Shown: positions 26,787-44,248, counted from the stretch's first letter. The stretch: 64,000 nt of DNA from a virus (IMGVR_UViG_3300032331_003094:18213-82212); one strand, 5' to 3'. Numbers and translations: made by a program. The notes: generated by a model not told the origin, from the letters alone.

Positions 26787-26831
26787 CGTGGTACGTATGT
26801 ACTACGCCATTAACTCAACTCAGTACTAACC

Positions 26832-27221: not shown

Positions 27222-27332
27222 CGCCTGCACTTAACCCTGCCGTGTGATACGAATTCGTATTGCGCGGTGGGTTTTCTGCAGGCCTCAACACTGAGGTCTG
27301 TAACATAACTTAACATCACTCAGGAGGATTCA

Positions 27333-28048: not shown

Positions 28049-28076
28049 GGACCTGAGCATGTCCTTAAACTGCTCA
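28049..28076 (+). promoter_or_regulatory. Pseudoknot-like element, copy 1 (others at 30292, 34543, 37962, 39071, 43357)
   Basis: GGAC-C-TGAGCA-T-GTCC-TTAAAC-TGCTCA. Confidence 0.75.
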
Positions 28077-28370
28077 ACACATAACCTATGTGTTATCAAC
28101 AATCTTAATAAGTGACAGTTATTGAGATTACAACTATCCCATTGCAATTCAACCATGACTTACTCACAGCCAGAACTTGATCGCATCGAAAGTCAAGCCA
28201 CTGCTGATTACTTGGATGTAATGGCAGACTTGGCCTATGAGATGGCTAATGCATTACGTGAAGAATACGAGGATGATCACTATGAAGAAGCAGCAGGTTA
28301 ACTACGATACCGTCACAGTTATTGTGGCGGTTGTTTACATACTATTCACACTACTCATCCAGGCAATCCA

Positions 28371-28727
28371 ATGGCTCTCTCAACTGAACAACAACTCATT
28401 GCTCAAGCAATCGGCTACGAACCAATCACTGGTGAAGAAGCTGAACAACAGTTCGAACCAGAAGTTAACTACGATCCAAAAGACGGAGGTGTCCCAAAGC
28501 CTGGTAGCATCTACCAGAACAAGCGTGGGACCTACCGTTATTACTGGAAGCCAAGCGGCGGTAACTACACCGCCAAAGACAAAGTTGAACTCGAAGGTTG
28601 GTACGACATCCCGTGCCTCGAAGACCTCGAAGAGTGGAGCTTCGACTCGTACGCGTTCACGCCAGGTGAAGACGAAGTCGAACCAGACCATCCCGACTCT
28701 TGGCTTCGGTTGCTCTACTTGATTTGA
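28371..28727 (+). CDS. Acidic early protein
   Basis: 118 aa; ends TPGEDEVEPDHPDSWLRLLYLI. Confidence 0.65.
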   Translation: MALSTEQQLIAQAIGYEPITGEEAEQQFEPEVNYDPKDGGVPKPGSIYQNKRGTYRYYWKPSGGNYTAKDKVELEGWYDIPCLEDLEEWSFDSYAFTPGEDEVEPDHPDSWLRLLYLI

Positions 28728-28893
28728 TTAAATATCGGGGGAAGATCGGATAACTTCCGATTATGTACCAGGGATCTGACAAATAAGTATTGTCCATCCC
28801 CCCAAACCCCCGCAACAGCCACTACCAGGAATAATCTTCTATATATAGAAGTTATTTCTTTAATTACACTTCAATCATTCACCAACTAATCAC

Positions 28894-29145
28894 ATGACTA
28901 CTGCTGAATTACCTGATGATCTTAATGACTATTACAAGGATAAAGCTAGAGATTTACCAACACGTAAACGTAATAGTGTTGATGACTTGATGCATGTATT
29001 GGACTGTGCAGTCATCGATGCCTTAAACCATGGTGGTTCTAATGAAGCAATCCATGAGGCATTCGAAGCTGTGATCAATCATCCAGACAGCACCTGGTCA
29101 AGGGATGTCCTTAGCTATCGCATACGTCAAGTCCACTATCACTAA
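28894..29145 (+). CDS. Hypothetical protein
   Basis: 83 aa ORF after an A/C-rich leader. Confidence 0.6.
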   Translation: MTTAELPDDLNDYYKDKARDLPTRKRNSVDDLMHVLDCAVIDALNHGGSNEAIHEAFEAVINHPDSTWSRDVLSYRIRQVHYH

Positions 29146-29401
29146 CGTATACGGCAAGGTTAAGAACAGGTTGAGCATGGGATTGGTTCACATTAGAACC
29201 TTGGTCTGGTGCGGCCAGACATCCCATGCTTGATCCATCAACCTGAATGATGGAACCCAAAGTAAACGCAATCATTGACGAGGATGATTGCACCAGTGGC
29301 CACTGGGTCTTGCAAGACTCGGTCATCGTAACATTTGTTACATGCTCATGGCCACTGCTTGACAACACTGTTAAACTAACCACGCACTCACATTCAAATC
29401 A

Positions 29402-29620
29402 ATGTCCAAACTTAATGACGCACCTAAGCCACGCATCCCTGATGCCGTGGATCAACGCAGGCTTGAAGCTATGCAATTAGTTGCAAAGATGAAAGAGTCT
29501 GCCGATAAGCACGGCATTGGATTTGTTGGTGGATTTATTACACCAGACGGAGAGAAGTTTGTTATGACCAATATGGATGACACTGATACCAAAGCACTCA
29601 TGCCGGAGGATCTTAAATGA
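29402..29620 (+). CDS. Hypothetical protein
   Basis: 72 aa, ATGA overlap with next gene. Confidence 0.65.
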   Translation: MSKLNDAPKPRIPDAVDQRRLEAMQLVAKMKESADKHGIGFVGGFITPDGEKFVMTNMDDTDTKALMPEDLK

Positions 29621-29814
29621 CTAAGAAATCTATTGTTAACTTTGATAAAACAATCTGTGGTATCAACATCACAGAACGTGGTATCAAATCGTTTACCAAA
29701 TCAATCAAGCTTGGACCGTTTCAACTAACGTTGAACGCCCGTGACTCCGGTATCCGTGGATCGATTTCGATCCCGGGCACTGGGTTGTCCAAGCGCAACA
29801 TTCGACTATTCTGA
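29617..29814 (+). CDS. DUF4236-like small basic protein
   Basis: SIKLGPFQLTLN...SISIPGTGLS. Confidence 0.55.
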   Translation: MTKKSIVNFDKTICGINITERGIKSFTKSIKLGPFQLTLNARDSGIRGSISIPGTGLSKRNIRLF

Positions 29815-30025
29815 ACTAACTCACATGAACTCAACTGAATTCCGCAACATGATCATGGTCATGGACCAGTATGGTGGCTCGTTTGTGTCATCAATTGCAC
29901 AAGCTTTGCGCTTTGCAGATCCGGTCAATCGTCAACGGTTGATCGATGCATTCCCAGATCTTGTTGCAAAGTATGGTCCTAATACCAAGTTCACACAAAT
30001 CAAACAACCTGTGGAGGTTTAACTT

Positions 30026-30286
30026 ATGTCCGTACTAGCCGTTCACGACTTTCGTATAGCAGATGACTATTGCACAGTTGAAGCAGTGGTTGAAGATGCA
30101 GTTCTACTCCATCTCCCAATGGACTATGAACCTGCTGAATTTGGCCCTGGACTTTGTACAGCAAAGTTTAGTGTGGATCCAAAAGAATCAATCCCTGTTA
30201 ATGAAGCTGACTTCTGTAGCTATCTTGATTCACTCAATCTCGATTGGCGACTGGTCGAAGCTGATAACTCCGATCTAGACAATTGA
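30026..30286 (+). CDS. Acidic hypothetical protein
   Basis: GGAGG RBS, 86 aa. Confidence 0.65.
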   Translation: MSVLAVHDFRIADDYCTVEAVVEDAVLLHLPMDYEPAEFGPGLCTAKFSVDPKESIPVNEADFCSYLDSLNLDWRLVEADNSDLDN

Positions 30287-30346
30287 TTAACCGTCCTGAG
30301 CATGACGTTAAACTGCTCAACACTACTAACTCACTACGAATTTACT

Positions 30347-32173
30347 ATGCAGTTTCAGCTACCTACTAACTTGCAGATTGAGTTACTAGCTTACGATCCA
30401 ACGCTGAAGAAGTTGGCTCGCACTAATAACTCAAAGACCAAATCAACTAAGTCTAAGTTTCCACTGGGTCAACCTATTGACATCATCCCACAAGATGTGT
30501 TGCGCACATCGTTAGTGCAAGATGCCATTGATGCAATCAACAGTTGCCCAGTGCCACAACGTGTACATGAATTCAAACGCATGAATGGTTTTGCAAAGAC
30601 CATGACATGCGCTGTGTTGTATCACTATGAATCTTGTTGGTATGCCGCATGGCTGCCACCCAAGGGACAGGAACAGGATTATGTTTATGGTTATAGCTTT
30701 GCATACAAAGATAACAAGACTTCAAGGAACATGGTTCCATTCAAAGTTACAACTACGGAAGATACACAGATTGTTAAGTATGGTAGATCTGATTTTATTA
30801 CATACTCACGACTTGTAACCAAGCAAAATATCATTGATGGGAACAGCGGTCACAATTGGGTTTTGCCAAGTATTACTTGGGGCAAAGGTCAAGGCATTCG
30901 TGAAGTTATTCGACGCTTTGAAGAATCACTAAAGGAAACCATCCCTGTATGGGATGATGCCCGTGGTGGTATGTTTGCCAGGCTTAAGAATTCAAACTTT
31001 GTTTCATTACTTGAACTGGAAAACATCATTGATAAAGAGTTGAAGGATACATGGAAGCCATCAGTTGATAATTTGTTTCACATCATTGATGAGTCTGTAT
31101 TGTTTCCTAGTGATTATCATTATGGTGTTTATAGAAGCTACAAATGTATTCGTCACATCATTGACAAACCATTTTTTCGTAGATGGATTCAAACAAAGTG
31201 TGATGAAACCATAGAACGCTTGAGTGATAATGACAATCGCTCAGAGCGTTACGTTAAACAACCATGGAATCAAATTAAGCATTTGTTTCGCATGATGTTG
31301 TACATAAATAATATCTGGCCTGATTGTCCTATTGATTATTATCAAACACACATTGACAATCTATTGGCTATATATAATTTGCATTCCAATACAGATAACA
31401 CGCGTGTATCTACGTGGTTAAACAAGCATATGCCTGTTGCATCTTTCTTTACGATTGTAGAAAAAGTTGTAACAAATCCAGATAAAAGACTTGGTACTTG
31501 TACCACAGATTCTATGACTGGACTTAATCAATACTATATTTCAGATTGGGTTGATACTGTAAACATGCTTTGTGATATATTGGCTGACAAAGAATCTAAG
31601 AATGAAACGTTAGCGCCACCAAAACGGTGGAGACTAACTGAGTTTCATGATTACATCCAAGGTGAAGCTTGGAAGGTTAAACATGTCAACAATGCATTAC
31701 CTCAGGATTTGTTCCCTGAACCTATCAAGGTACAAGTTGAACATACAGAAAAAGTAAATGCAACGTCAACATCTGACAAAATGATTTACAACATTAACGA
31801 CAATTTAAATTATGGTAGACCAATCCTTGATCTTATAGATGGTCATTATAAAACAACACCAGTTAACTATACATTTTTCCAACCTATTGATACCCATCAA
31901 CTGGCGGCATGGGGCCAGGCTGTACGCAACTGCGTTGGTAATGCATCCAACTATGCAGATGGTGTACGCAAGAAGAAACATTTCATTGTCTTAGCAATGC
32001 TTGACAACAAGCCAACGTTTACTATCCAATTGGAAGTCGACATGGGCATGATGTCCGTCAAACAGATTGTTGGCATATCAAATGCCAGGCTTACCAGTGA
32101 CCAAAAAGATTCCTACACCAAAGCTTTTTCGCAAGCGTTGAAGCTTCAAGAATCTAAGCTACAATCTGCGTAG
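30347..32173 (+). CDS. PcfJ-like domain protein
   Basis: LTEFHD...QLAAWGQAVRNCVG..Y...FTIQL...VKQIVGISN. Confidence 0.7.
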   Translation: MQFQLPTNLQIELLAYDPTLKKLARTNNSKTKSTKSKFPLGQPIDIIPQDVLRTSLVQDAIDAINSCPVPQRVHEFKRMNGFAKTMTCAVLYHYESCWYAAWLPPKGQEQDYVYGYSFAYKDNKTSRNMVPFKVTTTEDTQIVKYGRSDFITYSRLVTKQNIIDGNSGHNWVLPSITWGKGQGIREVIRRFEESLKETIPVWDDARGGMFARLKNSNFVSLLELENIIDKELKDTWKPSVDNLFHIIDESVLFPSDYHYGVYRSYKCIRHIIDKPFFRRWIQTKCDETIERLSDNDNRSERYVKQPWNQIKHLFRMMLYINNIWPDCPIDYYQTHIDNLLAIYNLHSNTDNTRVSTWLNKHMPVASFFTIVEKVVTNPDKRLGTCTTDSMTGLNQYYISDWVDTVNMLCDILADKESKNETLAPPKRWRLTEFHDYIQGEAWKVKHVNNALPQDLFPEPIKVQVEHTEKVNATSTSDKMIYNINDNLNYGRPILDLIDGHYKTTPVNYTFFQPIDTHQLAAWGQAVRNCVGNASNYADGVRKKKHFIVLAMLDNKPTFTIQLEVDMGMMSVKQIVGISNARLTSDQKDSYTKAFSQALKLQESKLQSA

Positions 32174-32223
32174 TCCCCACAGACTTGCCAGCCTTAGCCT
32201 CGTAACTAGGGCTGGCACCAATC

Positions 32224-32442
32224 ATGACTGACTACACTGATGAGCAACTACTTGCTATGGCCATGGCCAATCTTGGTGAGTACATTCATGACAACTCACC
32301 GCATTACGTTTTAATGCAAAATGATCCTCGCAACGAGGATGACTACGATAGTTGGCAGTACGGAATGGAAGTATTGCCTCATGATCACACTTGGCAACAC
32401 ACATCTATTGATGTGAGTGTAAGTCCAAGTGAGCCCGAGTAG
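32224..32442 (+). CDS. Small acidic protein
   Basis: 72 aa; 3' end overlaps the tRNA. Confidence 0.55.
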   Translation: MTDYTDEQLLAMAMANLGEYIHDNSPHYVLMQNDPRNEDDYDSWQYGMEVLPHDHTWQHTSIDVSVSPSEPE

Positions 32443-32508
32443 CCCAGCGGAAGAGGCAAACGACTTAAAATCGTTCCAGCGTGAGTTCGAATCTCACCTC
32501 GGGTACCA
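32433..32508 (+). tRNA. trnL: tRNA-Leu(UAA), CCA encoded, short variable loop
   Basis: Acceptor GCCCGAG/CTCGGGT, anticodon arm AACGA-CTTAAAA-TCGTT, T arm GTGAG-TTCGAAT-CTCAC, ACCA end. Confidence 0.92.
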
Positions 32509-32530
32509 ATTTTAAAACACAAATCAAATC

Positions 32531-32833
32531 ATGTATTACGCTTTGCCAACCTATTGTCCAGAACATCCCGCAGATCCATTTACTCCTAAAGCAAGTGGTG
32601 CTGTAAAAACAACAAGAGAACAAAGAATGTATGTATATCGACAACGTAAGAAAGGTAAAACATACAAAGAATTAGCTAGCAAGGTTAGCCTTACTACTCA
32701 AGGAGCAATTAATGTATGTAAAAGAATAGATCGAAAAATTGAATGGTTAAAACATGCAATAAGAAATGAATACAAAGCAGCTAAAAGATTGAACCTTAGT
32801 ATATGGGAATATAGAAAAGCTTATACACAATAA
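32531..32833 (+). CDS. HTH DNA-binding protein
   Basis: RKKGKTYKELASKVSLTTQGAINVCKR. Confidence 0.6.
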   Translation: MYYALPTYCPEHPADPFTPKASGAVKTTREQRMYVYRQRKKGKTYKELASKVSLTTQGAINVCKRIDRKIEWLKHAIRNEYKAAKRLNLSIWEYRKAYTQ

Positions 32834-32896
32834 ATAACTGGGCATTGTTTACATGTAAGTCCCAGCTTTAACAACAACTAACACACATTTAATTCA

Positions 32897-33259
32897 ATGG
32901 AAATTCTTGCTTGTTTCAAACATCTAATTCCAACTGTACATGCTTATCAAGATGATGAGCAACGTTACAACCTGGGTGCTACATGGACTGCTGCCGATGG
33001 CTTGCAGGATTACCACAACATCGAACTTAAGTACGTTCGTAACTCAGAACGTCTTGCTCTCCAAGGTGATCCACAACCTGATGGCAGCTGGAAGTATGTA
33101 GAAGCTAATGGCACCGTTCATACCATCACGGCTGAACGCGCCAATAACTTCATGAAGACAACCAGTGACCATGCTACGCTGATGTGTCAGATGCTGGACC
33201 GCCTGCAACAAGCAGGAATCACCGGTCCAACAGTTGACACCCAAGCGTCGGCTGCTTAA
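32897..33259 (+). CDS. Hypothetical protein
   Basis: 120 aa ORF followed by a terminator. Confidence 0.65.
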   Translation: MEILACFKHLIPTVHAYQDDEQRYNLGATWTAADGLQDYHNIELKYVRNSERLALQGDPQPDGSWKYVEANGTVHTITAERANNFMKTTSDHATLMCQMLDRLQQAGITGPTVDTQASAA

Positions 33260-33280
33260 ACTACCAACGGAATGTCTGCG

Positions 33281-33306
33281 GAGCCTGGCGCAAGCTGGGC
33301 TCTTTT
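33281..33306 (+). terminator. Rho-independent terminator
   Basis: GAGCCTGGC-GCAA-GCTGGGCTC followed by a T run. Confidence 0.7.
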
Positions 33307-33309
33307 CTT

Positions 33310-33648
33310 ATGACTAACACTGATCAAACCAATCAAGTTGACCAAGCTGTTGTGGATGAAGTTGTAAGACGGATTCCAGAACATACTTGGGATGATGTTA
33401 AAGCAACATTGATTACACACATTGTGGATTCAATGCCAAGTGACGTTATGCTTCGGCTGACTAATGATCCGGAAGGATTTGAAGAAGCTGAAAACATTTT
33501 GTATAACTACTATGAAGATCCTAAGCGTCATTGGAATTTAATCAATGATGCATTCCAATTGTTTGGTGATGAATATGTCTTAGTGCTACTTGATTCAATG
33601 CAACTTGACAAAATTCAAAATGCAAACACTGACTCTCAATTGCCCTGA
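33310..33648 (+). CDS. Acidic hypothetical protein
   Basis: 112 aa ORF. Confidence 0.6.
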   Translation: MTNTDQTNQVDQAVVDEVVRRIPEHTWDDVKATLITHIVDSMPSDVMLRLTNDPEGFEEAENILYNYYEDPKRHWNLINDAFQLFGDEYVLVLLDSMQLDKIQNANTDSQLP

Positions 33649-34102
33649 CTGTAACAAAATCAATCCATTACTTCTTGAATCACGAATGACAGTTCGTGGT
33701 GTAAGACGTAGGCGTTATGAATGTAAAGGGTGTCGTCATCGTTGGACTTTGTTTACCAAAGAAAACGAGGGGCGCCCTTACAAACCAAATGGATGGGATG
33801 TCTACAAGGGAAGGATGGATGAATGGCGTTCATTATCAAGAACGCAAGCTAAAGCAATAATATTATCTAATAAACCACAACGTGAACTTGCTGAAGATTA
33901 TGGTATCTCACGTCAAGCAATTTCATTAATTCAAACCGGTAGGATCTATAAAGATATTTATGAAGAAATACATCCACCGCGCACAGGTCCAATGATTTAT
34001 TGTGCCAGTTGTACACACTGGAGTCGTGATCGTTGTGGTTTTGAATTTCCAGATGCTGGTGATACCTTTGCCACTGAGTGTTCTGTTTACCAATCTAAAT
34101 AA
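33620..34102 (+). CDS. NrdR-like Zn-ribbon + HTH protein
   Basis: CPDC...ESR...RRRRYECKGCRHRWT; QRELAEDYGISRQAISLI; C-terminal Cys cluster. Confidence 0.65.
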   Translation: MQTLTLNCPDCNKINPLLLESRMTVRGVRRRRYECKGCRHRWTLFTKENEGRPYKPNGWDVYKGRMDEWRSLSRTQAKAIILSNKPQRELAEDYGISRQAISLIQTGRIYKDIYEEIHPPRTGPMIYCASCTHWSRDRCGFEFPDAGDTFATECSVYQSK

Positions 34103-34104
34103 CA

Positions 34105-34407
34105 ATGAATTATGAACGGCTTGCTGTGATGAAACGCGTTAACAAAACGTTTCGTGAAACGGAACTATTGAATGAACCACCTGTCGTTCATCCCTTAATT
34201 GAAAAAGTTGCACGCGCTATTAGCGATTGGCAATCTGAACGAGACTGGTTGTTTCATACCGACCAGGCTATTCGTGTTATCGAAACCATTGCCGAACAAC
34301 TTGGCAAAGAAGGTTATGATATGCCACAAGATTATTTGCGTCGTGCAATTTGGAAAGAAGAACCCAAGCCCAGGCAATCAGGCATAAAGGGTGGGGCCAC
34401 ACCGTGA
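34105..34407 (+). CDS. Hypothetical protein
   Basis: 100 aa ORF. Confidence 0.55.
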   Translation: MNYERLAVMKRVNKTFRETELLNEPPVVHPLIEKVARAISDWQSERDWLFHTDQAIRVIETIAEQLGKEGYDMPQDYLRRAIWKEEPKPRQSGIKGGATP

Positions 34408-34596
34408 TCAGTGGCATGGCCCTTCAGTTACCAATCAGAGGAGACAGCAAAAACTCTGATTCCCTTGGATAATGAGGCTGACGCTGTCCTTCTTCGCCTC
34501 ATTAATACTGTAATACAAATAGCTATTCCCGTACGGGATTATGGACCTGAGATGTCCTAAAACTCATTCATTAATTTAACTTATCATTCAACTCAA

Positions 34597-35379
34597 ATGA
34601 AATTACTCAAGTTTTCAACTGGCAATGCCAAGCTTGTTAAACGTTTAATCTTTTCGTTGCCAGCTGGATATTCATGTCCACATGCTGGCGTTTGTAAAAC
34701 ATTTGCAGATCGAACCACTGGTGAAATTACTGATCTACCTCAACGCAATGGGACTATTGCTCCTGAGTTTCGTTGTTTTGCAGCCATGTCAGAAGTTAGA
34801 CCTAATGTGCGGGAAGCTCGTTGGCATAACTGGGACTTGCTGCGTGAAGTAATCTACTCAACTGATTCCGATACCAAAAAACAATTACAAGCTTTAACAG
34901 AACTTATTGAACTATCCATTGCTGTACAACCTGCCAGGGACTTGGTTCGTATTCATGAATCAGGTGATTACTGGACTGAGTTGTACATGCATGCATGGGC
35001 CAATGCTGCCAGAAACTACAGCCGTATGACGTTTTACAGTTTCACCAAATCTTTAGGTATGTGGTACAACTTGCGCAAGGTTCTGCCAAAGAACATGTAT
35101 CTAACTGCATCATATGGCGGTGTGCTTGACGCAATGATTACCAAATATCCCAGGACATTCAAACGTTCTGCTCGTGTTGTGTACACAGAACAAGAAGCAG
35201 CTGACCTTGGTCTTGAGATTGATCACGATGACAGTCACTGCTTGGGTGACAAGCCATTTGCACTATTGGTGCATGGCAGCCAACGTGCTGATTCTGCTGC
35301 ATCCAAGGCGTTGTCTCAACGCAAGAAGGAAGGTGGATTTGTTGGATACAACAAAGCAAACCAAAAGGTTGCGTTGTGA
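34597..35379 (+). CDS. GP88-family protein
   Basis: GNAKL...FSLPAGYSCP...C...CFA...VRIHESGD...FYSFTK...LTASYGG. Confidence 0.7.
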   Translation: MKLLKFSTGNAKLVKRLIFSLPAGYSCPHAGVCKTFADRTTGEITDLPQRNGTIAPEFRCFAAMSEVRPNVREARWHNWDLLREVIYSTDSDTKKQLQALTELIELSIAVQPARDLVRIHESGDYWTELYMHAWANAARNYSRMTFYSFTKSLGMWYNLRKVLPKNMYLTASYGGVLDAMITKYPRTFKRSARVVYTEQEAADLGLEIDHDDSHCLGDKPFALLVHGSQRADSAASKALSQRKKEGGFVGYNKANQKVAL

Positions 35380-35628
35380 ATTAAATGCAGTAGCATTTGA
35401 CCGTCTTCCACAAGATTATGTCTTACGTTATTGCAACCTATAAAGATGGTCGGCCATATGCTGTTCAAGCATGTGGCCAAACCAATTCATTCCAGCTTGT
35501 TGCGTTAGACTCTGACGTAGCATTAAACAAGATTTTTTCACATCCCTACAGGGCTGGTGCATTTCAAATCTTGTCATGGATTGAAAAGAATGACCACGAA
35601 CTTGCTAGTGAAGAACTCGATGTTTACG

Positions 35629-37452
35629 ATGAAGCCAAATTCCGCAAATGAATCTTGGCTTACATTCGACATCGAGACCGATGGACTGTATGATCAAGCC
35701 ACCAAAATTCATTGCATTGTTATTTATGATGTCAACCGCCAACTCACTTCTAGCTACGGGCCTGATCGCATTGGGGATGCTATTGAGCATCTGCGTAGTG
35801 CTGATGTTCTTATTGGCCACAACATTCTCTTTTACGACATCCCTGTAATTCAAAAATTAACGCAAGCAATTTTTAATGCACGTGTTATTGACACGCTCAT
35901 TTGTACCAGATTGATCTGGCCCAAAGAATTACTCTATGAACTTGACACTGAACAATATCCGCAGGTTCCATCGAAGCTACGTGGTTCTGCCGGACTCAAA
36001 GCATGGGGCTATCGACTGGCTGACAACAAAATTGAATTCAAAGACTTCTCAGAATATTCCCAAGAAATGTTGGACTACTGCATCCAAGATGTGGAAGTCA
36101 CCAAAAAATTATGGGAACACATTGTTAAACAAAACTATGCACAGCCGTCGCTTAAGCTGGAGCATGACTTTGCTTTTGCAATTAATCGGCAAATTAGATC
36201 AGGTGTTCCTTTTGATTTGGATGCAGCTCTTGATCTGGTGGATGATCTCCGAGCAAAACAAACAGAACTTGAAACACAATTAAAAGAATTGTTCCCACCA
36301 ATTAAACAAGAGGAATGGTTTACACCCAAAGTAAATAATACTAAGCGTGGCTATGTCAAGGGTGTGCCATTTCGCAAGGTAATTGTCGAAGAGTTTAATC
36401 CTGGATCCAGGCAACAAATTGCTGATCGTTTACGCAACAAGTATGGATGGACTCCAGAAAAAACAACTGAAAAAGGCAATCCAGTTCTTGATGATGATGT
36501 ACTTGAAAAGTTACCGTATCCCGAAGCCAAAACGTTAGCAGAGTATATGCTAATTAAGAAACGTCTTGGACAAATTGCTGAAGGAAACAATGCTTGGACA
36601 AAGCTTGTTAATAATAATGATCTCCGTATGCACGGTGACGTTGTTACAAATGGTTGCATTACAGGCCGTTGCGCACATCGAAACCCCAACATGGGTCAAG
36701 TGCCCGCAGGATACTCGCCCTATGGAAAAGAATGCCGCTCGTTGTTCCATGCTCCTAACGGCTGGGACCTTATTGGTATTGACGCTAAAGCATTGGAGCT
36801 TCGTTGCCTCGCTGGATATCTTGCTTACTGGGATAATGGGGAATATGCTTCTCTTGTTATTAATCCTGAAGTAGATATTCATACCTATAACCAACAACAG
36901 TTTGGTGTGGAAACCAGGGACATCAGCAAACGTTTGTTGTATGGAATGTTGTATGGCTGTGGTGCAGTTAAGGCTGGAACAATTATTGATCCTAATGAAA
37001 AGGATGAATATAAACTTAAAACCTTGGGGCGTAATGCTATTGATGGTTTTATGAAAGGTGTGCCAGCACTTAAGAAATTAAAACAACAAATTGATGAAGC
37101 AATTAGTGAACGCAATTACCTCATTGGTTTAGATCGACGTGCATTGCATTGCCGTTCTGCATTTAAAGGATTGAATGTTTTGTTGCAATCAGCTGGTGCC
37201 ATCATCATGAAGCAAGTCGTTGTAACCATTCATAACAACATTGAACAAAACCTTGGTTTGGTTTACGGCAAGGATTGGGAACAGCTTTTGATGGTTCATG
37301 ATGAAATAGAAATTGCATGTTATCCCGCATACACTGAGGCGGTTAAAGAACAAGCTATTATGGCTTTCCCCCAAGCTCAACAAGCTTTTAACTTCCGTTG
37401 TGAAATTGAAGGTGATGCAAAAGTTGGTTTTAATTGGTATGAGGTACACTAA
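35629..37452 (+). CDS. polA: DNA polymerase family A (T7-like) with 3'-5' exonuclease
   Basis: FDIETDG, IGHNI, DYCIQDV, TGRCAH.NPN, GIDAKALELR, SKRLLYGMLYG, MVHDE. Confidence 0.95.
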   Translation: MKPNSANESWLTFDIETDGLYDQATKIHCIVIYDVNRQLTSSYGPDRIGDAIEHLRSADVLIGHNILFYDIPVIQKLTQAIFNARVIDTLICTRLIWPKELLYELDTEQYPQVPSKLRGSAGLKAWGYRLADNKIEFKDFSEYSQEMLDYCIQDVEVTKKLWEHIVKQNYAQPSLKLEHDFAFAINRQIRSGVPFDLDAALDLVDDLRAKQTELETQLKELFPPIKQEEWFTPKVNNTKRGYVKGVPFRKVIVEEFNPGSRQQIADRLRNKYGWTPEKTTEKGNPVLDDDVLEKLPYPEAKTLAEYMLIKKRLGQIAEGNNAWTKLVNNNDLRMHGDVVTNGCITGRCAHRNPNMGQVPAGYSPYGKECRSLFHAPNGWDLIGIDAKALELRCLAGYLAYWDNGEYASLVINPEVDIHTYNQQQFGVETRDISKRLLYGMLYGCGAVKAGTIIDPNEKDEYKLKTLGRNAIDGFMKGVPALKKLKQQIDEAISERNYLIGLDRRALHCRSAFKGLNVLLQSAGAIIMKQVVVTIHNNIEQNLGLVYGKDWEQLLMVHDEIEIACYPAYTEAVKEQAIMAFPQAQQAFNFRCEIEGDAKVGFNWYEVH

Positions 37453-37959
37453 ATGGATTTTTTAAAATTAAAACCAATACCAAGCAAAAATGAATTGCAA
37501 GTTTTATTAAGATATGAAACAGAAACCGGGTTTTTATTTTGGAAAAAAACTAATAAAAGAGCCGGCAGTATGCCTAAATGTACTGATCTTAAACATTGTC
37601 AATACAGAAGAATAACGGTGTCTCGCGTTGGATATGTAGAACACAGAATTATTTATCAATTGCATTATGGTGACTTAACAACGCAAGATGCAATTGATCA
37701 TATTGATAGAGATAAAACAAATAACAAAATTGAAAACCTTAGAAAAGCTGATGTTTATTTAAACAATCAAAATCAAGGAGATAGAAAAAACAATACATCT
37801 GGATACAAAGGTGTTTCATGGTCAAAACAACGTCAACAATGGCGTGCCACAATAACCGTAAAGAATAAACATAAACACATTGGATTTTTTATTTGTAAAG
37901 AAAAAGCTTATGCGGCGTACTTGGATGCTCGCGTCAAGTACTATGGATTTGCTTGTTGA
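37453..37959 (+). CDS. Free-standing HNH-AP2 homing endonuclease
   Basis: EHRIIY...IDHIDRDKTNNKIENLR...NTSGYKGVSW...WRATI; AT-rich. Confidence 0.88.
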   Translation: MDFLKLKPIPSKNELQVLLRYETETGFLFWKKTNKRAGSMPKCTDLKHCQYRRITVSRVGYVEHRIIYQLHYGDLTTQDAIDHIDRDKTNNKIENLRKADVYLNNQNQGDRKNNTSGYKGVSWSKQRQQWRATITVKNKHKHIGFFICKEKAYAAYLDARVKYYGFAC

Positions 37960-38008
37960 CTCGTCCCAAGTAAGACGTTAAACTGCTTTCCACCAACCAT
38001 CGGAACCA

Positions 38009-38815
38009 ATGAACTTTGTGACGGTGTGTGCCCAGGCGACTGAGGTACCACGTGAGGTTTATACCTCAGCTACTTCCACGGCATTACGCTGTAATCTTTT
38101 GTTACCTCCTGTAGGTAATAAAGCACCAACCCCAATTGAAATCAATGTGTATGGCAAAAGTACAGAACGTTTTCAACGCACCACTAAAGGAGAACTTCTG
38201 TACATTCACGGCGCCAAGCTACGTTACGACCTGGAATCCAGGACGCATTCGTTACATGGAGGAATTATTACTCCGGTTACGGAAGCATTCCCAATCTTTA
38301 ATACAGTCATCCTTGCAGGACGTTGCGTTAAAGACATCGACAAAGATGATGCTCGCGCCTTTAAAACCATGGCGAATGGGTTGATGAGTTGCAGCCAAAC
38401 ACTCTCAGTTAATACTGGGCGTAATCAAGCTGACTTGTTTAACTTCTACGCACTTAATTCCGTAGAAGATAAATTAAATAATGCCGAACTTTTGGTTAAC
38501 TTTACCAGGAAGGGTACTGGCCTTACCTTGCAAGGTCGGTTAATTACTGATGCCTGGGTTGATAAGGAGACCAAGGAAAAACGGACATCAACCAAGATTC
38601 AGTTGACATCTATGACCTTGGCACCCAAGGCATCAACCCCTGCAGCACCAGAGATCAAGCCACACACAACTGTTGCAAATCATGAAGTTGCTGGGTTGTG
38701 GGGCGGTAAGACCGCCGATGATGTAGCAGAACCCTGGGGGTTAAACGTAGGTAGCAACCTGCCTGAACTCCCAGGTCAATTTGATCACAACGATTTAACC
38801 AACGCACCTTTTTAA
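38009..38815 (+). CDS. ssb: Single-stranded DNA-binding protein with two OB folds
   Basis: FNTVILAGR...RKGTGLTLQGRLITDAWVDKET; acidic tail ending APF. Confidence 0.75.
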   Translation: MNFVTVCAQATEVPREVYTSATSTALRCNLLLPPVGNKAPTPIEINVYGKSTERFQRTTKGELLYIHGAKLRYDLESRTHSLHGGIITPVTEAFPIFNTVILAGRCVKDIDKDDARAFKTMANGLMSCSQTLSVNTGRNQADLFNFYALNSVEDKLNNAELLVNFTRKGTGLTLQGRLITDAWVDKETKEKRTSTKIQLTSMTLAPKASTPAAPEIKPHTTVANHEVAGLWGGKTADDVAEPWGLNVGSNLPELPGQFDHNDLTNAPF

Positions 38816-38819
38816 AATC

Positions 38820-39062
38820 ATGACACTCACAACAAAAATTATTGATCCAACGCTTACGTTGGAGGATGCAATTGCCTATGAGTTTTTCATGGACAATTTG
38901 CCAAACATAATAGGTGATTCACTGGGGAATCTTGAAGCTACGGAGGAAGAAATTGATCAAATAGTTGATGGCATTAGTTTGTTGGCTTTAATGTCTTACA
39001 GGATTGCACAACGTTTTGAATGTGCACGCGAAGCAATGAAAATAGTTAATGAAAAAAATTAA
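38820..39062 (+). CDS. Hypothetical protein
   Basis: 80 aa ORF. Confidence 0.55.
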   Translation: MTLTTKIIDPTLTLEDAIAYEFFMDNLPNIIGDSLGNLEATEEEIDQIVDGISLLALMSYRIAQRFECAREAMKIVNEKN

Positions 39063-39110
39063 TTAGTAATGGACCTGGGATGTCCATAAACTCATCCGTA
39101 CTTAACCTAA

Positions 39111-40184
39111 ATGATCATGAGCGACACACTCATCGACTCTGTTACTGACACCCCACCTTCTCTGAGCACCCTTAAGAAAATGACCGTTAAGAAAACCTCC
39201 GCACTTGCAACACGTGGACTTGATTCATTCCGGATGTTTCAATCCAAAGAATTCGTCTCTGGATACCAAAACCTTGTCACAATCCAACCACTCAACAAAT
39301 CAAAAACACGAGGTTGGTTCGTACGGAAGTCAGACCTGGATACTTGCGGATGGAGCGCAAGTGAAGATCAGTTTGCTAAAGGTTCAGTTATCTGGAACTA
39401 CAAGCAGACTTTTGGTATGGCTCCCAACACTTCAATTGAAGAGGGGCTTAATTTCACTGAGCCTCGTTTGCAAATCCTTTTACGTTCTCCCCTCATGGTT
39501 GAGGAAACCACAGGGATGAGGCAGACGATTGGCACCTTTGAAAATCCCGATGTCAAAGAACTTTGGGAAGCTGACAAGATTGCATCTGATCTTGCCAACA
39601 GCAAAGGTGAAATGTACAAACGCAAGTACAGCGTGCGTACCAAGTACCTGGTCTACATTTTGACCCAGGACAACAAACGTGCCCACAAGATCCCCATGGT
39701 TCTAACTTTGAAAGGATTGAACGGTACGGATGTTTCCGAAAAGGTTAAGATGTATGAAAAGGAAATGTCCAAGTGCTTGAGCAAAGCACTGGATGCTGAA
39801 GTTCCTTTGTCCTTTAATGAAAAGTTCTACGCCACTACCGTTTTTGCTCCGATACTTGCCAATGAAATGCGCGGCGCCAACAACGTTGAGATCTGCGCAA
39901 TTGAATCTTTTGACATCCCTGATTACAACGACCAAGAATCTGCGATTGAATCCCTGAGTCGCTTGTCGATTCCTGATGAAGATCGTGAATCAACTTGGAA
40001 GTTCCAGGACTTGTTTGGAGATTACATCAACCAGCATGCTCGGCAAGATGCTGAGAAGCTTGGTGGTGCATACGGTATCAAGTCCGGTGTAGAAATTCTT
40101 CCTGCATCCAGGGGAGTTTCGGAACTTGAAGTGAAGGCATTGCCTGCACGCGATGAACTGACCGGAGAGGACACTTCGTTCTGA
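39111..40184 (+). CDS. Conserved hypothetical protein (possibly DUF5895-like)
   Basis: 357 aa ORF next to ssb, highly expressed codon bias; family call from memory. Confidence 0.55.
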   Translation: MIMSDTLIDSVTDTPPSLSTLKKMTVKKTSALATRGLDSFRMFQSKEFVSGYQNLVTIQPLNKSKTRGWFVRKSDLDTCGWSASEDQFAKGSVIWNYKQTFGMAPNTSIEEGLNFTEPRLQILLRSPLMVEETTGMRQTIGTFENPDVKELWEADKIASDLANSKGEMYKRKYSVRTKYLVYILTQDNKRAHKIPMVLTLKGLNGTDVSEKVKMYEKEMSKCLSKALDAEVPLSFNEKFYATTVFAPILANEMRGANNVEICAIESFDIPDYNDQESAIESLSRLSIPDEDRESTWKFQDLFGDYINQHARQDAEKLGGAYGIKSGVEILPASRGVSELEVKALPARDELTGEDTSF

Positions 40185-40205
40185 TCCGTTTAGTACGTTA
40201 AGATT

Positions 40206-40230
40206 AGGCCCTGCATCAGCGGGGCCTTTT
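40206..40230 (+). terminator. Rho-independent terminator
   Basis: AGGCCCTGC-ATCA-GCGGGGCCT followed by a T run. Confidence 0.75.
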
Positions 40231-40280
40231 GTTTGGCATCATCGTGTTTTATTGGATTGTCTTTATTCTCCAGGGTTTGC

Positions 40281-40541
40281 CTATTCTTTTTTTGGTAACT
40301 CTGGGTTTCCTAATTGCTCGCCTTCTACTACCACATTGTTAAAACAAAACATGTCTTGAACTAAACCACGAATGATTCCCTGACGTTGTGTTGCAATGGT
40401 CGCCAACAAAGTTGCCATCTCTTGCAACTGACTAACTGAATTACATTCTTTAATGGATCGATTTATTTTCTCTTGCCAAAACTTATCATCGAGCGTTGGT
40501 TCGATTTGAAACTTGGTAAGTGGAACGTATTTGATTTCCAT
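40281..40541 (-). CDS. Hypothetical protein
   Basis: 86 aa with TAAAAT 21 nt upstream. Confidence 0.6.
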   Translation of the reverse strand: MEIKYVPLTKFQIEPTLDDKFWQEKINRSIKECNSVSQLQEMATLLATIATQRQGIIRGLVQDMFCFNNVVVEGEQLGNPELPKKE

Positions 40542-40619
40542 TTGTTTAAAACCGTTAACTTATTTTACTGTTACAGTCAAATCTTAACTTGAATTTCACA
40601 TTGTATTCACAAACACACT

Positions 40620-40820
40620 ATGGACAATGCTGAGAAGTCTGCGCTAAAAACAGGTGGCATCTTTGGTGCCATCACCGCCCTTGCAGTTGCTCCCTTTGCT
40701 ACGCCTGTCATTTGGGCAGCTGTGGCATATGGAACCTACAGGGTTGCACGCAACGCCTATCGCAATGCTAAACTCGATGAGGCCCCCAGGGGCAAGCCGG
40801 ATGACAACCTCTTTATCTGA
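40620..40820 (+). CDS. Small membrane protein
   Basis: Hydrophobic GA-rich helix. Confidence 0.6.
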   Translation: MDNAEKSALKTGGIFGAITALAVAPFATPVIWAAVAYGTYRVARNAYRNAKLDEAPRGKPDDNLFI

Positions 40821-40856
40821 GGTTAAACTTCCTCAACTCAACTTAAAACAAAATCA

Positions 40857-41804
40857 ATGTCGAACCAAACGCAAACCAGTCTCACTACAACGCAAGCTTC
40901 TATTTATTCTCGGACTAACATCCGCCGCGCCTTCTCGGACTTTGACGACACTGATGTCGCCGGTATTTATCTCCGAGATGATTCTTGCGTCGTGGCTTAC
41001 CATCATGGTGGTGAACTTAGTTACCCACGGGAAGTAATCAAGACTGCTTTCCAGAACTATACTTATCGTCTCAAAGATTTCTTTTCGTATCTTGGTCCCA
41101 ATTATCGTGGCCCTAGTGTATGGCATAACAATGCTTACATTATGTTTAAGGGCTGGCACTACAACCACCAACTCGGACACCTGACTTCCAATGCCGTACT
41201 CCAAAAAGAATGGGCAGACAAGTTTATCCACCTCACAGACGCCAACAAACTCACAGCTTTACTGCAATCGGATCAAACCGATATTGGGCATCTGGTGGCG
41301 CCGGACGGGATTCGGATTCCGAACGGGCCCGTTGACTTGGAGTCTGACTTGGGGGATGAGACCACAAGCGTATCGCCCGTCAATACTGAACCTTATTGCT
41401 CATGTGGGTCCTTTCAGCGTCAGCTTCTTAATGTTTCAAGTTTTCAGGAGGAGATCCAAGGATTCAAACCCTGGTGCATCCACCTGACTTGGTTTCATAA
41501 GTATCGGGAACTACTGGTTAAACGCGCCCAGGTGCGTAATGAAGCGCGGGGTGGTGCACCTATGAACTGTGTGGCATGGTGGTATGCACCGCCATCTGAT
41601 CACAGCAGTGACGGACGGTTTGTTTTGTTGTATACCAAGTATGGATCCATGGCTCCTCTTAGCCATTGGCGTACGTACAAACCTCAAGAAACCTTTACCC
41701 AACACAATGCATGGGATTTGTTTTTCAATATGATGGAAGCTGGTTACGTTCCGTTTCCTGGTAGTTCACTTCCACAACTTGCTAATGCAACCAAAAAGAA
41801 ATGA
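40857..41804 (+). CDS. SWIM zinc-finger protein
   Basis: YCSCGSF...WCIHL. Confidence 0.65.
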   Translation: MSNQTQTSLTTTQASIYSRTNIRRAFSDFDDTDVAGIYLRDDSCVVAYHHGGELSYPREVIKTAFQNYTYRLKDFFSYLGPNYRGPSVWHNNAYIMFKGWHYNHQLGHLTSNAVLQKEWADKFIHLTDANKLTALLQSDQTDIGHLVAPDGIRIPNGPVDLESDLGDETTSVSPVNTEPYCSCGSFQRQLLNVSSFQEEIQGFKPWCIHLTWFHKYRELLVKRAQVRNEARGGAPMNCVAWWYAPPSDHSSDGRFVLLYTKYGSMAPLSHWRTYKPQETFTQHNAWDLFFNMMEAGYVPFPGSSLPQLANATKKK

Positions 41805-43364
41805 CTAAGACACAACTATTTGTTATCGATCCTCACCCTGCCATTCCACCTTCTGATCAACTAAAAGAATGGGAAGACAAATGGTTTGATGAGGCAGAAC
41901 ATCCTGATGTCCTGTTGATCCAAGCATTTCAAGCAGGCGCCGACCAGGAGCTGGAGGCGTGTTGTGAGTGGCTGGTTAGCGAAGGATGGTTCAAATACGA
42001 ACACAAGGTTGTGGAAGATCTCCGCGCTGCCCGCCGCCCCACGCCGCCAAGTTTGAAGGAGCAGGCGCTGACTGCGCTTTACGCTATTGCAACAGGTGCT
42101 AATGACACTCGTGAGCAACACCAAGACTTCGACACCATCCGCCGCGCACTGGAGGCATTGCCCAATGACTGACTTCCGCGCCCTGTGCGAAGAGCTTAAC
42201 GGGCTACTGGAATACATTTCTGATATAAGTCCCCATCTTTGTGAAGACGAAATTAACAACCTGACAAACAGCGCACGCGCCGCCCTGGCTGAGCAGCCGG
42301 TAGGGCCCACGGATGAAGAGCTGTGGGAGGCATGGGGGTGTTTCGAGCACGAGCCTTTCAGCAAGGGGGACACCATTATGCAGTTGCGTGAGTTCCTTGC
42401 CCGCTGGGGGCAGTCATGACTGATCTCTCCCCCGCCGCGCAGGCAGTGTTGGATGCTGCTGCTGACGTTTATTGGGACTGGTCCGACATGTCGCCTGCGT
42501 CTTCCTCGACAATTGCCGCCGCTGTTCTGCGAGCTGTTGTACACGGTGATTACATTACCTCCGAGGCAATCCTCGCCATCGCCGCCGAGCTGGAGGAACT
42601 CGATGACTGACTCCCCCGCTTATGTAAATATACTTGTGCCTCCTGCCTACGCGGGGTGTTGGCAACTCACTGATACCTACCGCATTTCAGTAACTAAAAA
42701 ACCCAACGCCTTTCACCGTTTTATGACAACTTTGTTACTTGGCTGGGAGTGGGTTGATGGCTGACCTAACTCCACGCCAGCAACTAATTGAAGAACTCAA
42801 CGAAAAACTTAGTGACGCTTTTCAGAGTGACTTTGAGCACGGTGTCAAAGCTCTTAACATTGCTGCTGCTGAAGAATTCCATCAAAAGTATCCAGCTTTA
42901 GTTGAAGTACTTGAGTGGATTGCATTTCTTTTTTACGAGGAACTTCCAATTGACTAACCTCTCCCCCGCCGCGCAGGCGGTGCGTGACGCATTTGACATT
43001 GCCAGTATTGATACTGCGATCTTTGGTGACCCAGACCGGCGCCTTGCTGCCGCTCTGCGAGCTGCTGCGGATCAACTTAGTTTTCAACTTCCATTTGAAG
43101 ATTCACGCTGTGTAGCAGTTCTTGATCTTCTCGCCATCGCCGCTGAGCTAGAGGGTGCTAATGACTAAAGTACTAATTCCATTTGACAAAATGACTATTA
43201 CTTACACAGAAGAACAAGACGATGGTGCATGCATCACATTTAATTGGGATGAGACAGACCCTGATCTTGCTTATTGGACATCCATGTCAGAAGATGAACA
43301 GCGTAGTTTTGTGTTGACTTCTTTACGAGATAGTCTTAAAGAACAACTTGATGAAGCGTCCTAG
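41801..43364 (+). other. Run of seven small overlapping ORFs (starts 41801, 42165, 42416, 42603, 42757, 42950, 43161), including two LSPAAQAV...LAIAAELE paralogues
   Basis: ORF track; shared 20-bp CTCTCCCCCGCCGCGCAGGC at 42425 and 42959; GC-rich patches. Confidence 0.7.
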
Positions 43365-43534
43365 GAACGACGTTAAACTTCCCATCCAACACAAAACAAA
43401 CTCATGTTTCATTTCATTGCATCTGTCGTTGTTCCTCAACTTACCAACACATTAAGGGACCTTGCCCTGGCAGCATGCGCAGCATTGCTGACATGGGCTA
43501 TCAACAAAGTTCAATCCCAATTCATCTGAACGCA

Positions 43535-44248
43535 ATGACTCAAATCACTCACGTCAAACTTCAAGACCTAAACGTCTTAAAGCTTTACGAACACTATGGT
43601 GCCCTGGAACGCAGTCTTCCTCTTCTTACTCCTGAATCTCAAGAGCTGGCCAAAGCAGAACTTGAAACTTGCGCCAACATACGGTCTGAAAAAATTGATC
43701 GTATTTATTACGCCATGGCGTCACATGAAGATGCGTTGGCACGCATCAAACAAGAAGGGGAGCTGATCACCCAGGCTAAGCGGCACCACGAATCTCAACT
43801 CAAGCAACTCAAAGGGTTGTTGAATTGGTTGCGGCGGTCTGCTCCGCTGCAAACCAACAAGATTACTGGCCGTAACTACGAGTTTGTTCTGGTCAAGAAG
43901 AAAGATCTTACTGTTGAGATCAGTTCCAATCTAGAAGATTGGGACGAGGGGGAACAAAACCAATTCTGCATCCAGCAGGAAACCACCACCACAAAACAAA
44001 CTGTGGTACGTTCTATGGATGGTACGGTTCTTGAAGAAAGGACTGAACCCAAAATTACAACCGAAACTCTTCCCTCTCTAAATGCCCTCCGCAATGCGTA
44101 TCAAGCCGGTCAGCACCTCCCCAGCGGAGTCAAAATCTTCCAAGAGTACAGCATCCGTAGTAAACGTATCTACACCGACAAGCCATTGGATCTGGAAGCA
44201 TCCGAATATTTCGGAAACGTTTTACCAGAAGTTGGAACCCCCGACTGA
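43535..44248 (+). CDS. Siphovirus Gp157 / Gam-like coiled-coil protein
   Basis: SEKIDRIYY...ARIKQEGELITQAKRHHESQLKQLKGLL...LPSGVKI. Confidence 0.6.
   Translation: MTQITHVKLQDLNVLKLYEHYGALERSLPLLTPESQELAKAELETCANIRSEKIDRIYYAMASHEDALARIKQEGELITQAKRHHESQLKQLKGLLNWLRRSAPLQTNKITGRNYEFVLVKKKDLTVEISSNLEDWDEGEQNQFCIQQETTTTKQTVVRSMDGTVLEERTEPKITTETLPSLNALRNAYQAGQHLPSGVKIFQEYSIRSKRIYTDKPLDLEASEYFGNVLPEVGTPD

Follow-up and report, generated by a model that had tools for sequence, protein, structure and literature searches.

Six copies of one compact H-type RNA pseudoknot are found between genes of the early and replication region of a lake cyanophage, whose complete 82,212-bp genome, with direct terminal repeats, is a virus record of IMG/VR (IMGVR_UViG_3300032331_003094). 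We have analyzed bases 18213-82212 of this record, a stretch of 64,000 nucleotides (nt) which we call the window. The knot is not restricted to this phage. It also occurs in unrelated phages and prophages of many phyla, in hundreds of phages altogether. Judging from its sequence, it appears to be a widespread and uncatalogued RNA, a variant of the coremin knot of eukaryotic RNA viruses. By analogy with coremin, it may be a mechanical roadblock to 5'-to-3' decay which would stabilize the downstream cistron; we would give this reading a probability of about 0.4.

Structure and conservation of the pseudoknot

A covariance model (CM) was built from the six sites, with stem 2 as the modelled helix and stem 1 unpaired in the model. 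It finds exactly six sites in the window, with scores of 37-54 bits, and the next-best match has 12.6 bits. All of them are intergenic and on the plus strand, at the positions given in an earlier note on this DNA (Table 1); the last copy, which the note ended at 43382, in fact reaches 43384. The core GWCSWWAAAC occurs 9 times in the window, against 2.2 expected, and the three extra occurrences look like chance.

Many other copies are found in related genomes. Of the deposited phages searched, Synechococcus phage S-EIVl alone is related at the DNA level, with 81% identity over 1 kb, and 80 related uncultured S-EIV1-like contigs encode the 357 amino acid (aa) DUF5895 protein at 76-89% identity. 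The CM gives 270 matches in these contigs, all on the gene strand, and seven in S-EIVl, all on the strand of the replication module, with knots directly before the SSB, DUF5895-like, GP88-like and PcfJ-like genes.

Covariation was measured on 119 distinct sequences from relatives, with 500 shuffles and slid registers as controls. Stem 1 is 99.8% paired, though it is not modelled as paired: its outer pair takes six different types (C-G, G-C, U-A, A-U, G-U and U-G) and its third pair is either U-A or A-U. Stem 2 is 89.8% paired, with compensatory changes at four of its six pairs. The observed pairing score is reached by none of the 500 shuffles, and no slid register comes near it either. The earlier note had seen compensatory changes and G-U pairs in both stems of the six copies, and the covariation across relatives goes far beyond what six copies could reveal. 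The G-U cells contain 82 counts and the A-C cells 13, so it is the sense-strand RNA that folds, not its complement or a double-stranded cruciform. The geometry is also classical for A-form RNA: loop 1, of 1 nt, crosses a stem 2 of 6 bp, and loop 3, of 6 nt, runs along a stem 1 of 4 bp. Together with the lack of a conserved promoter upstream, this supports an RNA structure rather than a DNA site, as the note had suggested.

The consensus of the phage knot is CGUCC-N7-GACGUUAAACU. C5, A19-A21, C22 and U23 are invariant, while U17 and U18 vary. Of 184 standard copies, 183 have the loop-closing pair C4-G13. The nucleotide at the junction varies, being U in 72%, C in 17% and A in 11%. A pattern which specifies stem 1 and loop 3 only and leaves stem 2 free, CGTCC-N7-GACGTTAAACT, has 105 matches in viral contigs; 87 of these have five or six contiguous stem 2 pairs, when about 0.7% would be expected. 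AAAC is fixed by this selecting pattern, but its conservation is shown independently by the CM matches and by a structure-only scan blind to loop 3, where the excess on the plus strand comes solely from WWAAAC loops. If loop 3 is left out, a generic pseudoknot scan is unspecific: it gives about 600 matches on each strand of the 82-kb genome and about 565 on each strand of the relatives.

Two of the six copies belong to a class with a 7-nt loop. In this class, a bulged register of stem 2 is 99.1% paired, and three of its five pairs covary. In this register the invariant A pairs with the U after AAAC, then come a G-C pair, a 2-nt bulge and three more pairs. Both classes therefore have a single architecture. 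The register previously suggested for these copies (UGAG/CUCA at 34543 and UGGG/CUCA at 39071) presents no compensatory change on 23 distinct sequences and fails in some relatives. A possible remnant had been noted at 40818. It has no CM match. We traced the orthologous junction in 63 related contigs, and all 55 distinct upstream sequences recovered from them have a simple G-poor leader and no knot, so we have discarded this site.

Position with respect to stop and start codons

A stop codon is the sole conserved feature upstream of stem 1. Of 264 unique copies, 110 have a stop triplet exactly 5 nt before stem 1, compared with about 15 at other offsets. When the stops are taken from open reading frames (ORFs), 108 are at 5 nt, 13 at 6 nt, 5 at 7 nt, and almost none are closer. 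This 5-nt spacing occurs with 25 different, unrelated families of upstream proteins. When the stop codon is in the A site, a 5-nt spacer leaves the first pair of stem 1 just outside the mRNA entrance of the ribosome (about +11 from the P site). The nearest of the five cleanly called stops in the window, 2 nt from copy 4, belongs to an HNH-AP2 endonuclease gene which is located directly 3' of the family A DNA polymerase gene.

On the downstream side, the distance from AAAC to the next ATG does not fall below about 25 nt; counted from stem 2, this floor is 19 nt. Above this floor, the distance from AAAC is specific for each gene: 25-28 nt for SSB and DUF5895, 33-35 nt for PcfJ-like and 39-41 nt for GP88 genes. 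The leaders between knot and gene have 12% G, against 22% in the background, and Shine-Dalgarno (SD)-like words are found in 17 of 215 of them. They had been described as A/C-rich and unstructured. They are G-poor, and unstructured behind five of the copies, but copy 1 is followed by a 7-bp hairpin.

The knot copies are associated with 21 families of downstream genes and 78 families of upstream genes, which indicates that the knot travels with the downstream gene. In the window these genes include PcfJ-like, GP88, SSB, the 357-aa DUF5895 and Gp157-like genes, in agreement with the earlier assignment. We read the spacing as the tightest packing of two ribosome footprints around a structure which is kept folded and belongs to the downstream gene: with the stop codon at least about 5 nt before the knot and the ATG at least about 19 nt after it, ribosomes on either side leave the knot folded.

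Some junctions between 25220 and 44000 do not have a knot (for example 26800-26831, 28860-28893 and 40830-40856). They present the same G-poor leader, with ACUCAAC-like repeats and no SD. Genes located beyond about 44 kb have purine-rich, SD-like leaders. This genome therefore has two styles of translation start.

Resemblance to coremin and proposed function

Coremin (xrRNA-C), which has a Watson-Crick variant (xrRNA-WCC), is an exoribonuclease-resistant RNA (xrRNA) found in beny-, cucumo- and other eukaryotic RNA viruses (PMC6546385, PMC10520033, PMC10321173). It is a small pseudoknot formed by a hairpin loop with a spacer (PMC10321173), and its published motif is GUCCGAAGACGUUAAACUAC (PMC10520033). 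Its fold is described as structurally unsolved in the coremin papers of 2019 and 2023 (PMC6546385, PMC10520033, PMC10321173).

The core is the same in the two knots. Both have GUC/GAC in stem 1, and a C-G pair closes the loop in both. The spacer UUAAACU is identical, and the phage knot shares GUCC as well as GACGUUAAACU. Mutagenesis of coremin has shown that U13 and U14 are tolerant while A15-A17, C18 and U19 are essential (PMC6546385). The tolerant positions (two U's) and the essential ones (AAA, C and U) coincide with those that are variable and invariant in the phage knot. Coremin also requires its C-G loop-closing pair (U-A is tolerated, G-C is not) and a pyrimidine as loop nucleotide 5 (PMC6546385); in the phage knot the first loop nucleotide is the invariant C5. 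The 4-bp stem of the phage knot, 99.8% paired, falls within the 3-5 bp of the coremin stem.

On the other hand, several differences can be observed. In the coremin spacer, UUAAACUAC, A20 is also essential (PMC6546385), whereas the equivalents of A20 and C21 are variable in the phage knot, where they are Watson-Crick pairs of stem 2. The PK18 and WCC variants of coremin indicate that Watson-Crick pairing at A20/C21 can still work (PMC10321173). The phage loop has 7-8 nt instead of 4-6 and is wholly taken up in a regular helix, and its stem 2 has 5-6 regular Watson-Crick pairs instead of 2-3 mostly non-canonical ones. The coremin loop consensus, YGAD/YGNNAD, is only partly matched: the Y (C5) and the penultimate A are invariant in the phage knot, but position 2 is U or C, not G, and the last position is C in 17% of the cases. 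Coremin is found in 3' untranslated regions of RNA viruses, while the phage knot lies between operon genes of double-stranded DNA (dsDNA) phages. In addition, coremin is followed by a second hairpin (hp2). Copy 1 alone has a hairpin of this kind, in a position analogous to that of hp2 (PMC6546385), and the other five copies are followed by G-poor, unstructured leaders. Our search of the literature found no link of coremin or xrRNAs to phages.

In our reading, the knot is constitutively folded inside the long phage mRNAs. It consists of the 4-bp stem 1, the 1-nt loop 1, which is always C, the variable 5-6-bp stem 2 and loop 3 (UUAAAC), probably located in the minor groove of stem 1. We propose that, after a cleavage upstream, 5'-to-3' decay would halt at the knot, and this block would depend on direction, as in coremin. 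The enzyme stopped may be the exonuclease RNase J, which cyanobacteria possess, and possibly also the 5'-end-dependent RNase E. The downstream cistron would then persist as a stable, translatable mRNA capped by the knot. SSB, GP88, DUF5895, Gp157-like and PcfJ-like genes may be among those protected. Given its spacing, translation on both sides would never melt the knot. This block and its benefit are what the analogy with coremin suggests. A flaviviral xrRNA blocks purified bacterial RNase J1 in vitro (PMC5760640), so bacterial enzymes, too, can be affected by folds of this kind. Among the three mechanisms put forward in the earlier note (a block to a 5' exonuclease such as RNase J, an antitermination signal and an operator bound by SSB), the coremin match makes the first one the best supported by analogy (PMC6546385, PMC10321173).

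Several observations weigh against this proposal. The Xrn1 resistance of coremin depends on hp2 (PMC10321173), which is missing in five of the six copies. The longer stem 2 would have to compensate for it, and the claim depends on that. The exonuclease Xrn1 is not stalled by ordinary frameshifter pseudoknots (PMC10321173). The YGAD loop consensus is satisfied in part. Of five diverse motif-bearing genomes, two (a complete Zixibacteria chromosome and a Bacteroidetes metagenome-assembled genome, MAG) had no RNase J above the cut-off, so this enzyme cannot be the target everywhere. In some contigs of Firmicutes and of giant-virus bins, a terminator comes directly after the knot, which would also suit a role at the 3' end.

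To our knowledge, structured RNAs which stop exonucleases have been found only in eukaryotic viruses. As a broader and quite tentative suggestion, the knot might be the first exoribonuclease-resistant RNA of the prokaryotic world, of a minimal coremin type, present in dsDNA phages of many phyla and in some cellular operons, where it would stop 5'-to-3' decay and punctuate polycistronic mRNAs into stable units. If so, the same core of about 15 nt would have been reached independently, or would be shared, by plant RNA viruses and bacteriophages. Acting against bacterial RNase J or RNase E, it would give phages a general, protein-free means of setting the lifetimes of genes within one operon, and the repeated occurrence of an uncatalogued motif in the genomes of hundreds of phages would be explained. 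The knot would also be a portable mRNA-stabilizing part compatible with ribosomes, as long as 5 nt or more separate it from the preceding stop codon and about 19 nt or more from the following start codon; such a 28-nt stabilizer may be useful in synthetic biology. The plentiful natural variants would help to work out the coremin fold. S-EIVl and Synechococcus PCCC-A2c are a cultured phage-host pair, in which the hypothesis is open to direct test.

Other possible functions

The knot might instead handle ribosomes, as a translational insulator which keeps post-termination or read-through ribosomes out of the next cistron, or as a platform or standby structure which aids loading of the 30S subunit on a G-poor leader without SD, each headed gene being initiated independently. 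Taking both variants together, we consider this rather unlikely. It agrees with the stop codon exactly 5 nt upstream, which puts stem 1 at the mRNA entrance of the ribosome, where its helicase is placed, with the ATG of SSB and DUF5895 25-28 nt after AAAC, and with the leaders without SD. In vitro, coremin itself is a block to scanning ribosomes and a stimulator of -1 frameshifting (PMC10520033; PMC10321173). However, the distance to the ATG depends on the gene (33-35 nt for PcfJ-like and 39-41 nt for GP88 genes, 45-77 nt with a normal SD in Firmicutes prophages), so the knot is not a fixed positioning device, and knot-free junctions in this module have G-poor ACUCAAC leaders just like these and do without a knot.

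A role at the 3' end of the upstream cistron appears improbable. The knot would shield this cistron from 3'-to-5' exonucleases, as engineered small pseudoknots protect RNA 3' ends, or it would modify RNA polymerase, as in put-like antitermination. The knot is always closely behind a stop codon, in several phyla, and terminators are found downstream of knots in the window. In Selenomonadaceae and in a giant-virus-bin contig, a terminator hairpin with a U-tract follows 0-10 nt after the knot. One contig has three tandem units which can be taken as knot plus terminator, although the third knot lacks the hairpin when it is read in detail. Nevertheless, five of the six copies have no U-tract or terminator behind them, the knot of S-EIV1-like phages is tied to a conserved downstream gene (21 downstream against 78 upstream families), and known folds of the xrRNA type are directional against 5'-to-3' enzymes. 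As for antitermination, at least six such sites per operon would be unprecedented, and we have found no specific support for this suggestion of the earlier note.

Still more improbable is an operator for a trans-acting protein (the phage SSB, as with gp32 of T4, or some other RNA-binding protein), which would nucleate on the knot, extend along the unstructured leader and co-regulate replication and recombination genes. The layout, a knot and an unstructured leader before SSB and other genes, resembles the gene 32 leader of T4 and T2, and the phage SSB has an additional N-terminal region of 96 aa. But the same core is found in phages and prophages of Firmicutes, Saccharibacteria and others, with different sets of genes, and also before capsid genes. 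A phage-specific partner would not keep nucleotides identical across phyla, and the invariant ones cluster at the helical junction and loop 3, as in a self-contained tertiary fold. The SSB operator of the earlier note has found no specific support, and a nearly identical core across many phyla argues against it.

A signal in the DNA (TAAACT as the -10 box of a phage middle promoter, or a hairpin promoter or single-stranded DNA signal) is already largely refuted: TAAACT fits TAnnnT, TTGACT or TTGAAT is found 17 bp upstream at 37962 and 28049, a consensus scan flags 37956-37984, and the sites split the module into gene blocks, but the region before stem 1 has no conserved feature apart from the stop codon, shuffled sequence contains more promoter-like sites, a start after TAAACT would leave out half of two covarying stems, the ratio of G-U to A-C excludes the template strand and a double-stranded cruciform, and a 1-nt loop over a 6-bp stem suits A-form RNA. 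The genome has no Pfam match to a T7-like RNA polymerase or to sigma-70 region 2 (PF00940, PF04542). We have therefore rejected a promoter or DNA hairpin.

Distribution outside the lineage

Using the pattern and the CM, full knots with a covarying stem 2 have been detected in Enterococcus, Finegoldia, Lachnospiraceae, Selenomonadaceae, Saccharibacteria, Anaerolineales and other genomes. Among Bacilli, 3 of 151 genomes match under stricter filters, too few for classes with RNase J to be compared with classes lacking it. The earlier note had suggested a multi-copy element acting throughout this phage. The knot is present in several copies in the replication module and is conserved within the phage lineage, but it is not peculiar to this phage, as unrelated phages and prophages have it.

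The context varies. In Enterococcus and Finegoldia prophages, the knot separates the minor-head gene from those of the scaffold and the major capsid; the Firmicutes prophages have 45-77 nt from the knot to the ATG, with a normal SD. In Saccharibacteria it is found 6-7 nt after the stop codon. In Lachnospiraceae-type elements it is 5-9 nt after a small ORF and adjoins the Rfam DUF2800 RNA. In a mobile element of Clostridia type, the knot adjoins the 5' end of the DUF2800 RNA (140 bits), after a 64-aa ORF. Two other loci (L096 and L145) have the same upstream ORF, of 64-65 aa, and no match to the DUF2800 RNA there. An identical knot context, CATTT-CGTCCTTGATATGACGTTAAAC-TGTCAG.., is shared by at least 11 viral contigs (L220, L237, L243, L251, L259, L266, L270, L277, L281, L284 and L286) and a Ruminococcus MAG (L100). 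These viral contigs have no contig in common with the S-EIV1-like set.

Three tandem units, 74-75 nt apart, are found in a giant-virus-binned MAG contig. The first two knots are directly followed by a CCCC/GGGG hairpin and a U-tract, an arrangement which is similar to that of hp2 in coremin and doubles as a terminator, and the third knot does not have this hairpin. An ORF of 23-26 aa in five anaerobe genomes takes its last codons and its stop codon from the knot. It has a conserved AHCx(D/E)GC motif and ends in ..SRA(RR)*, and ArsR-like and AhpD-like genes are nearby. Translation of this ORF would melt its own knot.

Two other, whole knot copies are ordinary CRISPR spacers, in a Bradymonadales MAG and a Calditrichia MAG. 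The Bradymonadales array has 42 repeats of 37 nt, with Cas1, Cas2, Cas4 and Cas6 adjacent. We have considered the capture of stable RNA fragments by an RT-Cas1 and rejected it, as this array has ordinary Cas1, Cas2, Cas4 and Cas6 and no reverse transcriptase. The spacers only show that phages of those hosts carry the motif.

Genome context of the six copies

The window contains structural genes on the minus strand from 1 to 24.5 kb and the early and replication arm on the plus strand from 25.2 to about 60 kb. Three strong hairpins with U-tracts, similar to intrinsic terminators, partition the plus-strand arm, and the knots are placed within the units bounded by them, not at their starts. The replication module also has a tRNA-Leu(UAA) gene between small ORFs, and the structural arm has a group I intron (Rfam match of 88 bits). 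A doubtful GTG ORF overlaps copy 6. The ATG at the usual 25-nt distance after this copy opens an ORF of 41 codons only, which overlaps the start of the Gp157-like ORF in a different frame.

Table 1. Coordinates of the pseudoknot copies and of other features mentioned in the text. Positions are those of the window unless a locus name (L) is given.
Feature	Position	Strand	CM score (bits)	Sequence or pairing	Context
Knot copy 1	28049..28076	+	53.9	Stem 1 GGAC 28049-52 / GUCC 28061-64; loop 1 C 28053; stem 2 UGAGCA 28054-59 / UGCUCA 28071-76; junction U 28060; loop 3 UUAAAC 28065-70	Upstream ORF ends 56 nt before
Hairpin, 7 bp	28077..28093	+		ACACAUA-ACC-UAUGUGU	Directly 3' of copy 1; read from the sequence
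Knot copy 2	30292..30319	+	50.7	CGUC-C-UGAGCA-U-GACG-UUAAAC-UGCUCA	TGA stop exactly 5 nt before stem 1; PcfJ-like gene (Pfam PcfJ), ATG 30347
Leader (example)	30320..30346	+		G-poor, without SD	Between copy 2 and start codon; equivalents behind each copy
Knot copy 3, 7-nt-loop class	34543..34570	+	37.3	Stem 1 34543-46 / 34554-57; loop 1 C 34547; stem 2 A34552-U34564, G34551-C34565, bulge 34566-67, A34550-U34568, G34549-C34569, U34548-A34570	GP88 gene, ATG 34597
Knot copy 4	37962..37989	+	44.2	CGUC-C-(C)AAGUA-A-GACG-UUAAAC-UGCUU; stem 2 of 5 bp, including one U-G	HNH gene stop 2 nt before stem 1; SSB, ATG 38009
Knot copy 5, 7-nt-loop class	39071..39098	+	39.7	Stem 2 A39080-U39092, G39079-C39093, bulge 39094-95, G39078-C39096, G39077-C39097, U39076-G39098	Stop 8 nt before stem 1; DUF5895, ATG 39111 or 39117
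Knot copy 6	43357..43384	+	43.8	CGUC-C-UAGGAA-C-GACG-UUAAAC-UUCCCA; stem 2 of 4 contiguous bp, one mismatch and one further bp	ATG 43404, 25 nt after AAAC; Gp157-like ORF start 43475
ORF of 41 codons	43404-43529	+			Behind copy 6
Gp157-like ORF	43475-44248	+			
HNH-AP2 endonuclease gene	37453-37959	+			Before copy 4
Terminator-like hairpins	27236-27271, 33280-33303, 40206-40227	+			
tRNA-Leu(UAA)	32433-32508	+			
Group I intron	7912-8155	-			
Knot and DUF2800 RNA	L144:1598-1787	-			Clostridia-type mobile element
Three tandem units	L297:4620-4840				Giant-virus-binned MAG contig
CRISPR spacer	L098:1788-1829				Bradymonadales MAG
CRISPR spacer	L152:5130-5171				Calditrichia MAG
ORFs of 23-26 aa	L101:6070-6189, L131:7190-7306, L115:245-361, L102:2200-2315, L107:6955-7050				Anaerobe genomes

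Comparison with other known systems

No Rfam family matches the knots of the window, either at gathering scores or at E<=10, and the 18+5 loci from other phyla present no Rfam match apart from the adjacent DUF2800 RNA. GP20-b (RF03003) is a candidate cis-regulatory RNA found before phage GP20/scaffold genes, which is also where the knot is located in Enterococcus and Finegoldia prophages. The GP20-b model has no match at the knot loci; its best scores elsewhere in those genomes are 17-19 bits, and its gathering score is 36.2.

The preQ1-I aptamer (RF00522) is another H-type knot. Its length is about 34 nt, and its 3' loop is A-rich, ends in ..AAAC and is followed by a strand of stem 2. We have rejected a preQ1-I riboswitch, as there is no match at E<=10 and the junction base which would pair with the ligand is variable. 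In the phage knot, a base pair fills the ligand site and there is no expression platform. In addition, it is present in at least six copies per genome, before unrelated genes.

In the gene 32 leader of T4 and T2, too, a pseudoknot whose 1-nt loop 1 spans a long stem 2 precedes an unstructured stretch and the gene for a single-stranded DNA-binding protein. This pseudoknot has a different sequence and is the autoregulatory site of a single gene, while the phage knot is found before many genes and across phyla.

Like the phage knot, the -1 frameshift pseudoknots of luteoviruses (BWYV type) are compact and of the H type. Loop 1 is short, with a C that may be in the major groove of stem 2, the junction nucleotide is extruded, and an A-rich loop occupies the minor groove of stem 1 (PMC10321173). 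The phage knots differ in having a longer stem 2 and no slippery heptamer or -1 extension, with a stop codon 5 nt upstream instead. The frame after this stop is open for at least 60 codons in 9 of 91 cases in frame 0 and in 23 of 91 in the -1/+2 frame, as expected if the downstream gene just happens to be in one frame or another. As these frames are not consistently open, stop-codon read-through or a frameshift fusion has been rejected. The earlier note did not recognize the knot as belonging to a named family. This agrees with Rfam but not with the literature, where coremin is a named relative.

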